Shown piece after piece: positions 11,601-14,504 of a stretch of DNA of 14,504 nt. The stretch is from a virus (taxonomy: Duplodnaviria; Heunggongvirae; Uroviricota; Caudoviricetes), in the IMG/VR virus record IMGVR_UViG_2529292834_000008, positions 1-14,504 of that record; one strand, written 5' to 3'. Within the stretch, counting starts at the first letter, position 1; each line of letters opens with the position of its first letter. Made by a program: the position numbers.

Positions 11601-14504
11601 TGCAGGGGGGCATGAAAGCAACCTCAAGCTTTATCGGGTGGTTGATATTGTGTCGGCATTTCTGGCATTACCACCGCCGGTTGCAGAAGGCGAAATGGAC
11701 GCGCATGAGCGCAAAGCCTGGTATCAGTCTGAACGTGAGCGTCTTAAGTTCGAACAGGAAACGGCGCAACTCATTCCGGCCAGTGATGTCAGACGGGAGT
11801 TTGCCATCTGGGCAAAAGCGGTCGTGCAGGTGCTGGAGACATTACCGGATATTCTTGAACGTGACTGCGGTCTGCAGCCTGCCGCTGTGAGCCGTGTTCA
11901 GTCCATTATTGATGATCTGCGCGATCAGATAGCCCTGCGGGGGACCGAAGCAGGTGCGGATGATGAGGAGGAATTACAGCAGGAGGAGTAATGCTGAATC
12001 AGGAAACCGCAAAGGCAGCACGAACCGATTCAGGTTATATCCTTCGCGCACCGAGACGAATGCAGGTTGCTGATGCCGTTGCTCAATATATGCGGGTGCC
12101 CATGGGGGCCGGGAACTCAGTCCCGTGGGATCCGCTGGTGGCACCGTATGTTATTGAGCCGATGAACTGCCTGGCCTCGCGTGAATACGACGCAGTGATA
12201 TTTGTTGGCCCGGCACGAACCGGCAAGACTATCGGCCTGATTGACGGCTGGGGGATTTACAACGTGATTTGCGATCCTGCGGATATGCTGATCATTCAGA
12301 TGACGGAGGAAAAAGCCCGCGAACACTCCAAAAAACGACTTGCCAGAACGTTTCGCGTCAGCCCGGAAGTGGTCAGTCGCCTGAGTCCGAACAAAAATGA
12401 CAACAACGTTTATGACAGAACATTCCTTGCTGGTAACTACCTGAAAATCGGCTGGCCGTCAGTCAATATCATGTCCTCATCAGATTATAAATGCGTCGCG
12501 CTGACGGATTATGACCGTTTTCCGGAAGATATTGATGGCGAGGGGGATGCTTTCTCTCTTGCCTCAAAACGTACCACAACATTTATGTCCAGTGGTATGA
12601 CGCTGGTGGAGAGTTCCCCCGGCAGGGATGTGAAGGATGTGAAATGGCGACGGACTTCACCGCATGAGGCTCCACCAACCACGGGGATCCTGTCGCTCTA
12701 TAACCGTGGTGATCGCCGTCGCTGGTACTGGCCCTGTCCACACTGTGGTGAGTATTTTCAGCCCTGCGGCGATGTGGTTGCTGGTTTCCGTGATATTGCC
12801 GATCCCGTGCTGGCAAGTGAGGCGGCTTATATTCAGTGTCCTTCCTGTTCAGGACGGATTATGCCTGAACAAAAACGTGAGCTGAACGGACGTGGGGTCT
12901 GGTTGCGGGATGGTGAATCCATCAATGCGGATGGCAGTCGTTATGGTGATCCCCGACGCTCACGTATTGCGTCATTCTGGATGGAGGGTCCGGCAGCTGC
13001 TTACCAGACACTCTCGCAACTCGTTTACAAACTGCTTACTGCAGAACAGGAATACGAGACAACCGGAAGTGAAGAAACACTCAAGACGGTTATCAATACC
13101 GACTGGGGATTACCTTATCTTCCCCGTGCCAGCATGGAGCAACGAAAAAGTGAACTGCTTGAGCAGCGGGCAGAGCCAGTTCTTTCCCGCAGTGTGCCGG
13201 ATGGCGTTAATTTCCTTGTGGCGACAGTGGATGTGCAGGCGGGACGTCATCGCCGTTTTGTGGTTCAGGTAACGGGCTATGGCAGCCGTGGCGAACGCTG
13301 GATTATTGATCGTTACAACATCACGCAGTCATTGCGCGGTGACAGCGACGGGGAGAGCCAGCGAATTGATCCGGCCAGCTACCCGGAAGACTGGGATGTC
13401 CTGCTGACGGATGTTTTTCATAAAAGCTGGCCGCTGGCCTCCGATCCTTCTCAACAAATGCGACTGATGGCAATGGCGGTGGACTCCGGCGGTGAAGACG
13501 GGGTCACTGATAATGCCTATAAATTCTGGCGTCGTTGCCGTCGTGATGGCCTTGGTAAACGTATTTACCTGTTTAAGGGTGACAGCATCCGGCGCGCAAA
13601 ACTGATCAGCCGTACATTCCCTGATAACACCGGACGAACGGGCCGCCGGGCGCAGGCCGCAGGTGATGTGCCGCTCTGGCTTCTTCAGACGGATGCCCTG
13701 AAAGACCGGGTGAATAACGCGTTATGGCGTGACTCGCCAGGTCCCGGCTATGTGCATTTCCCTGACTGGCTGGGGAGCTGGTTTTACGACGAACTGACGT
13801 ATGAAGAGCGGAGCAGTGACGGGAAATGGAGTAAGCCGGGTCGCGGTGCCAACGAAGCTTTTGACCTGATGGTGTATGCCGAGGCTCTGGTCATTCTGCA
13901 TGGATACGAAAAGATCCGCTGGCCGGATGCACCGGAGTGGGCGAGCCGGGAAACCTGGCTGGAGTGTGTCCCGGACAGTACCGAACCGTCACCCTCACCG
14001 GAACCGGTATCCACGCCTGTTAAAAAACAAAAACGGAAGAAAACAGTAACTGACGATGTTAACCCCTGGCTGACTTCCGGAGGATGGTTATGAACCAGAA
14101 TGATATCGAAGCCATGATTCAGCGTTATACGGAAGCTGAAATGGCGGTGCTGGACGGAAAATCCGTCACCTTTAATGGTCAGCAGATGACCATGGAAAAC
14201 TTATCTGAGATCCGGCAGGGACGGCAGGAGTGGGAGCGCCGCCTTGCGGCTCTGATTACACGACGACGGGGGCATCCCGGGTGCGCAGGATGACGCCGGA
14301 CAGCACCACAGACCAGCTGCAGAACAAAACGCTCTGGTCGTCATACACCGAAATCATCGATGTGAAACAGTGCTACCCGAACACGGCACTGGTCGGCGTG
14401 CAGGTGGACTCGGAGCAGTTCGGCAGCCAGCAGGTGAGCCGTAATTATCATCTGCGCGGGCGTATTCTGCAGGTGCCGTCGAATTATAACCCGCAGACGC
14501 GGCA

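Follow-up and report, generated by a model that had tools for sequence, protein, structure and literature searches.

Cryptic lambdoid prophages that have lost their morphogenetic block are well known in Escherichia coli, DLP12 (nohD-aaaD'-tfaD'), Rac, Qin and the defective Sp prophages of O157 Sakai among them, and such decay is usually viewed as random deletion filtered by selection. The window described here, a 14,504-nucleotide (nt) stretch that constitutes the entire draft contig APXF01000110.1 of E. coli 2741950 (positions 1-14504), carries part of a lambdoid prophage of the cdtI/mEp460 type in which the late gene W is joined directly to an internal fragment of the tail gene J. As in those elements, packaging remnants adjoin tail-tip or tail-fibre remnants, the regulatory, lysis and cargo genes are kept, and the head and tail genes are gone; unlike them, the window prophage still has cos and both terminase genes at full length, with only one visible deletion, and for that reason its decay appears to be at an early stage.

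A second group of described systems comprises the deletion hotspots with one fixed endpoint that Bierne, Michel and Ehrlich reportedly found at terB and at the origin nick sites of pC194 and M13. The W locus is like these in that one end of the deletions is fixed within a few nucleotides, the other varies through short similarity, and all deletions run in one orientation; it differs in having no recognisable Ter-like site, no Rep or relaxase nick motif, and no origin. To our knowledge, a recurrent left endpoint has not been described for DLP12-type elements, and our literature search found no description of a cluster of breakpoints in W. Our reading, to which as a whole we give a probability of roughly 0.75, is that the window contains a genuine deletion, that its W-side endpoint is a recurrent breakpoint from which at least 25 other independent deletions start, and that a strand break at one bond in W would underlie them.

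The W-J junction and the deletion

The window was compared, over positions 14080-14504, with the W, B and J proteins of lambda and cdtI by BLASTX. Codons 1-64 of the 70 in W proved 100% identical to cdtI W, and J residues 180-254 matched both lambda J (1,132 amino acids) and cdtI J (1,165 amino acids) at 74 of 75 positions (E = 4e-48); for the open reading frame (ORF) downstream of W, the lambda and cdtI portal proteins gave only matches of E > 1 over 10-29 residues. The sequence-only reading had proposed that the ORF following W is an internal segment of J and not portal protein B, and this is borne out: the ORF aligned neither to a portal protein nor to the N-terminus of a gene, and the similarity to J is strong. 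The Pfam profile FNIII-A_GpJ also recognises the fragment, with a score of 33.5 bits (cut-off 27) over positions 99-125 of its 126. By Megablast, window 13900-14282 matches the terminase and W genes of cdtI (100%), mEp460, Ayreon, Tritos and others (99-100%), and window 14277-14504 matches J of many lambdoid phages (99.1%). The identity to the intact parent type (cdtI, mEp460, Ayreon and Tritos) includes the sequence CCCGGGT, and it is the remainder, as far as J codon 180, that the window lacks.

The truncated W gene, W' (14090-14293, plus strand), encodes 67 amino acids ending ...RRRGHPGCAG and translates to MNQNDIEAMIQRYTEAEMAVLDGKSVTFNGQQMTMENLSEIRQGRQEWERRLAALITRRRGHPGCAG followed by the stop codon TGA at 14291-14293. 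Codons 1-64 (14090-14281) are native and 100% identical to cdtI/mEp460-type W, and the three that follow (residues CAG) are foreign. The protein is ENA83715.1/WP_001397108.1 of E. coli 2741950, identical on two contigs. Native W has 70 amino acids with the C-terminus RRRGHPGYRLARF (...HPGYRLARF), so six codons were lost and three gained. An earlier suggestion that the terminase and W genes are both intact thus stands for the terminase, whose gpA-type large subunit (11991-14093, plus strand; PF05876 GpA_ATPase and PF20454 GpA_nuclease) is full length at 700 amino acids, equal to that of the intact E. coli IrN prophage, but not for W. Nor was the C-terminus of lambda W the right comparator: no BLASTX match to lambda W was obtained with the 14080-14504 query, because the W of the window belongs to a different sequence family. 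Its position and size do fit a gpW head-tail adaptor, and identical genes in Ayreon, Tritos and mEp460_4F5 bear the annotation W or Ad1; Pfam returned only DUF6148 at 18.5 bits, under the cut-off of 27.

The remnant of the breakpoint motif lies at 14276-14282 (plus strand) and reads CCCGGG/T, where native W has CCCGGG/TACCGG (a slash marks the broken bond). The sequence is W-derived through G14281 and J-derived from G14283, T14282 being common to both parents, and the junction therefore falls within the interval 14275-14285 that had been predicted. Native W of cdtI reads ...CATCCCGGG/TACCGGCTGG at this point and native J, from the aligned cdtI, 2B8 and lambda sequences, ...ATATCCGGA/TGCGCAGGATG, whereas the window reads ...CATCCCGGG T GCGCAGGATG; copies of W are recognisable to the left of the break by ...GGGGGCATCCCGGG. 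Microhomology at the junction, which the sequence-only reading had singled out as worth examining, amounts to the single shared base T14282 plus an imperfect flanking match (CCGG.T), a shortness that tempers any interpretation of the joint. A 6-bp microhomology CCGGGT was ruled out; the inspected native J alleles read CCGGAT, and only T can be shared because these alleles have A, not G, before it.

The internal J fragment occupies 14283-14504 (plus strand; lambda J residues 181-254), where the contig ends, and the public record has a gene call at 14290-14504. The frame from 14281 reads VRRMTPDSTTDQLQNKTLWSSYTEIIDVKQCYPNTALVGVQVDSEQFGSQQVSRNYHLRGRILQVPSNYNPQTR and runs off the window end; the V of its RVRRM is a hybrid codon, native J reading RMRRM. 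The first in-frame ATG of the fragment (J Met184, 14290-14292) overlaps the W' stop codon (14291-14293) as ATGA, which looks like a chance arrangement, although some reinitiation into the J remnant might occur. A Shine-Dalgarno-like AGG lies directly beside this ATG, which is poor spacing.

The sequence-only reading had called for a comparison with an intact related prophage. In the intact phage cdtI and in the E. coli IrN prophage, W stands directly before the portal gene, and the order continues with protease/capsid, decoration, tail tube, tape measure, M, L, K, I and J. Because intact relatives run from W through the portal gene to J in this way, one 12.66-kb deletion accounts for the junction. 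The flanks map collinearly to cdtI 2721-3021 and 15685-15907, and 12,664 bp are absent in cdtI coordinates (3021/3022 to 15684/15685); the single deletion that had been proposed is therefore upheld, but at a size smaller than the suggested 14 kb or so. The lost interval comprises the last six W codons, the essential morphogenetic genes (portal, protease/capsid, decoration, head-completion and the tail genes for the tube, tape measure, M, L, K and I) and J codons 1-180.

The possibility that the junction is an assembly chimera at a repeat had to be considered, since only 222 bp separate it from the end of a draft contig, an end that falls inside J, a multi-copy gene in E. coli; the window edge is accordingly an assembly break and no biological boundary. 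However, the same junction, preceded by 5.6 kb of matching sequence, is present in an independently produced k-mer assembly from an unrelated run. This Logan contig, ERR15358139_519 (5,695 bp), matches window 8617-14311 with two mismatches, crosses the identical junction and stops 29 nt past it, as expected if it was cut off on re-entering multi-copy J. In addition, the parents share 1 nt, too little for a graph mis-join, and analogous junctions are present in closed genomes. A chimera is thus given only the slightest chance. Taking together the collinear flanks, the genes in the lost interval and the second assembly, the junction is very probably a genuine chromosomal deletion in a cdtI/mEp460-type lambdoid prophage, joining W codon 64 to J codon 181. 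Judged by its gene content, the prophage keeps cos, both terminase genes, the lysis genes, Q and its cargo, and can no longer build heads or tails. To this extent, and with J visible for 222 bp, the earlier description is supported: a cryptic prophage without its morphogenetic block that retains its cargo. In itself, the deletion is an ordinary step of prophage decay and needs no new biology.

A recurrent endpoint in W

The W-side endpoint, CCCGGG/TACCGG, is situated 20 nt before the W stop codon and the start of the portal gene, and it recurs. A protein-collection search with W' yielded more than 20 different proteins that are identical to W through ...RRRGHPG(Y) and then diverge. A DNA-level set was assembled from the records of W'-like proteins plus two found by an IMG/VR scan that excluded the native continuation; the DNA records carry L numbers, L001 being strain MB98 (NZ_CP073926.1), L004 from run ERR15358139 and L016 strain E2 (NZ_CP104509.1). 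This set contains 15 distinct junctions, each a deletion in the same orientation with its left end at GGG/ or within the next 7 nt. A further 11 distinct W tails, known at the protein level, break at codons 64-66.

The right ends are widely spread: the nearest lies 0.35 kb downstream, and the farthest are in side tail-fibre genes at a distance of some 17 kb or more. In cdtI coordinates they fall in the portal gene at 3372 (L014), 4218 (L200) and, at its C-terminus, 4391 (L197); in the capsid gene at 6193 (L018) and 6389 (L017); in the decoration gene at 6815 (L199); in the head-completion gene at 7098 (L020); in a tail gene at 8064 (L144); in the tape measure gene at 11510 (L198); in J at 15685 (the window) and 15781 (MB98); and in a side tail-fibre gene at 19652 (strain E2 and relatives). 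Three records have no cdtI match at the right end: L019 and L147 enter tail-fibre-like sequence (one or two sites), and L013 enters unidentified sequence upstream of a tail-fibre assembly gene. One end is thus shared and the other varies in all 15 DNA-level and 11 protein-level events, which is the pattern of a fixed-endpoint hotspot. The junctions were treated as independent because the prophages that carry them have different lysis cassettes and terminase alleles and are integrated at different sites (prfC, potB-pepT, ynaE).

The distribution of endpoints bears directly on the simplest alternative, a one-off illegitimate (microhomology) deletion during prophage decay, with the apparent cluster arising from sampling, GC-rich microhomology or selection. 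Deletions of that ordinary kind certainly occur in the same decayed prophages, where 4-7-bp microhomologies at unrelated sites were used: GTGA (L014, 8818 to 15304), GCAGA (L018, 6531 to 6889), AGACAGC (L018, 6994 to 7844) and GGTTAT (L020, 7774 to 19296). Two other complete genomes have head and tail deletions that run from the terminase to tail gene L with different endpoints. Against this, 26 endpoints (15 DNA and 11 protein) lie within 7 nt and five in the adjacent 48 nt (codons 48-63), and a uniform model is rejected (binomial P = 1.5e-21). The bases shared at the junctions vary from event to event (none, T, TA, TAC, TACC, GGTACCG), and because they differ no single stable microhomology explains the clustering. 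Events with no homology still break exactly at GGG/, and none of the catalogued junctions ends in the last 15 nt of W. Selection at the protein level is also disfavoured, as the in-frame fraction is at the chance level. We consider a one-off deletion with an accidental cluster unlikely, if still worth bearing in mind. As a pattern, the recurrent W-side endpoint is well supported.

The cluster is seen against a background of native copies. In phages cdtI, mEp460, Ayreon and Tritos, W runs on as TACCGGCTGGCGAGGTTCTGA and shares an overlap with the start codon of the portal gene, and at least 120 W copies in IMG/VR (among the matches listed, an arbitrary sample) all have the native continuation apart from single-base variants, so the breakpoint events are individually rare. 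A second scan, of GTDB, for non-native continuations of W gave only chance matches in GC-rich taxa.

MB98 is the only complete genome that has W beside J, in a prophage remnant at yjjG/prfC (NZ_CP073926.1, 4041612-4038768). Its junction, CATCCCGGG TACC CGAACACGG, has the W endpoint of the window and a J endpoint 96 nt further on (cdtI 15781 versus 15685). Here TACC is shared at the junction, an in-frame W(1-65)::J(209-end) ORF of 1,012 amino acids results (L001, 15191-18229), annotated as two pseudogenes, and the terminase is truncated as well. The flanks differ from those of the window by 1.0% on the W side and 2.3% on the J side. From these comparisons the MB98 junction is probably a separate event, although a further deletion of 92 bp in a window-type allele could also have produced it.

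In strain E2 (L016, 9191-10419), W' runs into a side tail-fibre gene at its codon 43. In eight other complete genomes, all of chicken or poultry origin, the match runs similarly past the breakpoint, which suggests that they share the E2 junction, probably by common descent. The type III effector genes espW and espM2 are located within 5 kb downstream in E2, and an IS21 element splits the terminase gene.

One deletion extends in the opposite direction. In L150 (IMGVR_UViG_2861069343_000002), the first 60 nt of the reverse strand join the start of the gene after the endolysin (the Rz position, ...ATGAGCAGAG) to /TACCGGCTGGCGAGG (/TACCGGCTGG...), so that cos, the terminase genes and W codons 1-64 are gone and this reciprocal leftward deletion stops at the bond where the rightward ones begin. 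This one reciprocal event suggests that both sides of the break are usable.

The longer contigs among these relatives also speak to the question of whether W of one prophage was joined to J of a different lambdoid prophage, by a large inter-prophage deletion or an inversion. Multiple prophages are certainly available, as E. coli genomes have a median of three and up to 15 places that match a 605-nt junction query. For the W side of the window the best match is cdtI (100%), while the J side matches other phages at 99.1% and cdtI at 97%; linkage between the two is hidden by the end of the contig within J. However, different best matches for the two sides are expected because lambdoid phages are mosaic, and the related junctions on longer contigs (MB98, E2, L013, L017 and L018) are followed by collinear tail, tail-fibre or cargo genes of their own prophage and then by host genes. 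By analogy with these relatives, we infer that the W-J event took place within one prophage; joining of two prophages is improbable.

An insertion sequence (IS) might also give rise to a fixed endpoint, had it inserted at a preferred target in W and later been removed with flanking DNA, either by excision of the IS-excision-enhancer type or by an adjacent deletion. Excision of this type, reported by Kusumoto and colleagues in 2011, is said to give one-sided deletions. IS-linked decay is evident in these prophages: an IS3-family end remnant interrupts the portal gene of L014, the terminase gene of E2 carries its IS21 element, and IS1203 lies beside cos in enterotoxigenic E. coli relatives. Yet no IS or IS remnant was found at the W site in the 15 junctions or in the at least 120 native copies among the matches listed, and W is joined directly to phage sequence in all 15. 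A target-site duplication would, moreover, fix the endpoint after the duplicated bases, and partners resembling TACCGG are not predicted by this scheme. An IS origin is thus very unlikely. The L014 remnant spans 340 nt (11062-11402; TGTAGTGGCACACTAAATTTGGCCACC...) at cdtI 4237 and is joined to cdtI 5287; the same IS-decayed prophage has a 345-bp deletion that starts at the W breakpoint.

Anatomy of the junctions and candidate break agents

The anatomy of the junctions was read for the 12 in which the native partner is known from cdtI. Related junctions have between 0 and 8 nt in common. Opposite W T3021, nine of the 12 partners have T, and the shared bases extend rightward from T3021 as T, TA, TAC, TACC, TACCG or TACCGGC; similarity to the left of the break is at the chance level. 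Two of the junctions without this T, L197 and L198, sit exactly at GGG/, L197 sharing no base and L198 sharing GG on the left. Three partners (L197 1977, L198 3939 and L200 4192; two in the portal gene and one in the tape measure gene) start with NATCCGG (P about 2e-7), a sequence similar to TA-CCGG if one base is bulged out. Two of these three have 11 identical bases in common (TGGCATCCGGT), too similar for chance.

Partners were also reused. L013 at 10192 (W...GGGTACC/GGAGTCGG) and L014 at 13943 (J...GCTACC/GGAGTCGG) have a common right partner (GGAGTCGGAAGTTGCCGGAC...), and the J site in L014 is the TACC also used in MB98; because of this reuse in L013, L014 and MB98, a few TACC sites appear to recombine with each other repeatedly. 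Five of the 15 fusions are in frame, the number expected by chance, and hence nothing points to selection on a fusion protein.

A strand break at GGG/TACC is favoured over random slippage because the bond is fixed and the partner resembles the sequence just beyond it. A nick or double-strand break would form at the bond CCCGGG/TACCGG, and the W-side end that is kept would be joined downstream, at a site that begins with bases similar to the lost TACCGG. The incoming end would pair with the intact strand beside the break before sealing, which amounts to short-homology joining at a fixed break. Whether a sequence-specific activity, encoded by the prophage, a competing element or the host, breaks or nicks CCCGGG/TACCGG in vivo, with short-homology repair repeatedly deleting the head and tail genes, is a further step; we offer it tentatively and judge the odds to be somewhat against it.

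Several observations weigh against our reading. The exact junction of the window was absent from 5,426 complete E. coli genomes, from the GTDB species representatives and from IMG/VR, and in JGI metagenomes it gave six 20-mer matches, all by chance and without flanking similarity; it is therefore a rare allele, represented by the source contig and one Logan contig, each flagged in three samples. Collinearity with the remaining J and the prophage end is not visible in strain 2741950. The third junction that lacks T, L200, has an ambiguous crossover whose shared bases may start 1 nt to the right of T3021. More generally, the argument from anchoring at this base draws on only 12 junctions, with partner bases taken from stand-in alleles whose identity to the true parents is 94-99%. 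Finally, no nuclease, pause element, IS or recombinase site was found that explains the fixed endpoint; a hairpin or quasi-palindrome pause, for example, is not indicated, as both strands fold no better than shuffled sequence (z = -1.3 and -0.3).

The other candidates fared no better. The prophage's own cos (window 11311) and lambda-type half-sites are unlike the W site, which disposes of a pseudo-cos cut by the phage's terminase, and HK97-type cos sites with 3' overhangs show no similarity to it. A GGGC located 12 nt upstream of the W site raised the idea of a 12-nt register, but no breaks cluster at that position. A mosaic module boundary was also discounted: in 41 phage records, homology to cdtI 2640-3400 spans W and the portal gene or starts and ends elsewhere, and no alignment ends at the W site, that of Fels-1 (70% identity) beginning about 7 nt past it. 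KpnI, Acc65I, SmaI, XmaI and AvaI-type enzymes would cut CCC/GGG, C/CCGGG, G/GTACC or GGTAC/C, never GGG/TACC, and of the 12 partners whose native context was mapped, only one (cdtI 6191) is a GGTACC site. Chi was likewise set aside, since none lies near the W site and the first copy in the correct orientation is found 1.7 kb to the left. Selection for a W fusion protein was dismissed on the heterogeneity of the tails and their chance-level reading frame. We know of no convincing match among invertase, Xer, integron, relaxase and rolling-circle Rep sites. The Gabija nuclease GajA nicks at TNNNC/GGGNNA (PMC8136825); the motif nearly fits the bottom strand, but the nick would fall at CCC/GGG and the motif is too frequent for a single site.

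If deletions in a conserved late gene recur at one breakpoint with nucleotide precision, prophage decay would be partly directed. A nuclease, a replication obstacle or a recombinase are possible causes, and a new mechanism of inter-phage or host-phage conflict could be revealed. Were the break truly site-specific, it would amount to recurrent, site-directed crippling of E. coli prophages in which the terminase, cos, lysis genes and cargo are kept. The intact parent-type phages mEp460 and cdtI have been isolated and sequenced, so the breakpoint can be tested directly. The deletion products retain abortive-infection genes and kinases and, in relatives, type III effector genes; because cos and a full terminase are also retained, they are candidates for packaging by a helper prophage.

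Retained genes and cargo upstream of the junction

The cos site of the prophage lies at 11299-11322 (plus strand), with the cohesive end GGGCGGGAGCGT at 11311-11322; the cdtI record begins with bases that map to window 11311, and the site resembles the lambda left end GGGCGGCGACCT. It is followed by an apparently intact ORF of 164 amino acids (11497-11991, plus strand) in the position of Nu1, the small terminase subunit, which was taken from the ORF list and identified as a DUF1441 protein (PF07278). DUF968, RusA and Q, together with holins and an M15 endolysin, are also encoded upstream of the junction. The closest relatives of window 1290-9900 are enterotoxigenic E. coli prophages (99.8-99.9%).

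The cargo upstream of the junction is of the defence type. An AbiH-like ORF of 203 amino acids (303-914, minus strand) is short relative to its profile, matching Pfam profile positions 1-183 of 260, and a separate 91-amino-acid ORF (43-318, minus strand) overlaps its end; a frameshift or truncation in the gene is possible. The cargo also includes hok (1423-1635) and Fic (2040-2534). A PD-T4-6/Stk-like Ser/Thr kinase and a PP2C phosphatase are encoded at 5176-6680, between Q and the methyltransferase gene. The best PADLOC matches of the kinase are mads_6, PD-T4-6 and Stk2; the phosphatase gene overlaps the preceding kinase gene, and its product has no PADLOC match. An orphan type II methyltransferase (7248-8297) is followed downstream by four tRNA genes (Met-CAT, Lys-TTT, Lys-TTT and Gly-TCC; 8347-8656). 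The IrN prophage has Ile-Arg-Arg tRNAs at the corresponding place, and the tRNA cassette thus appears to have been swapped.

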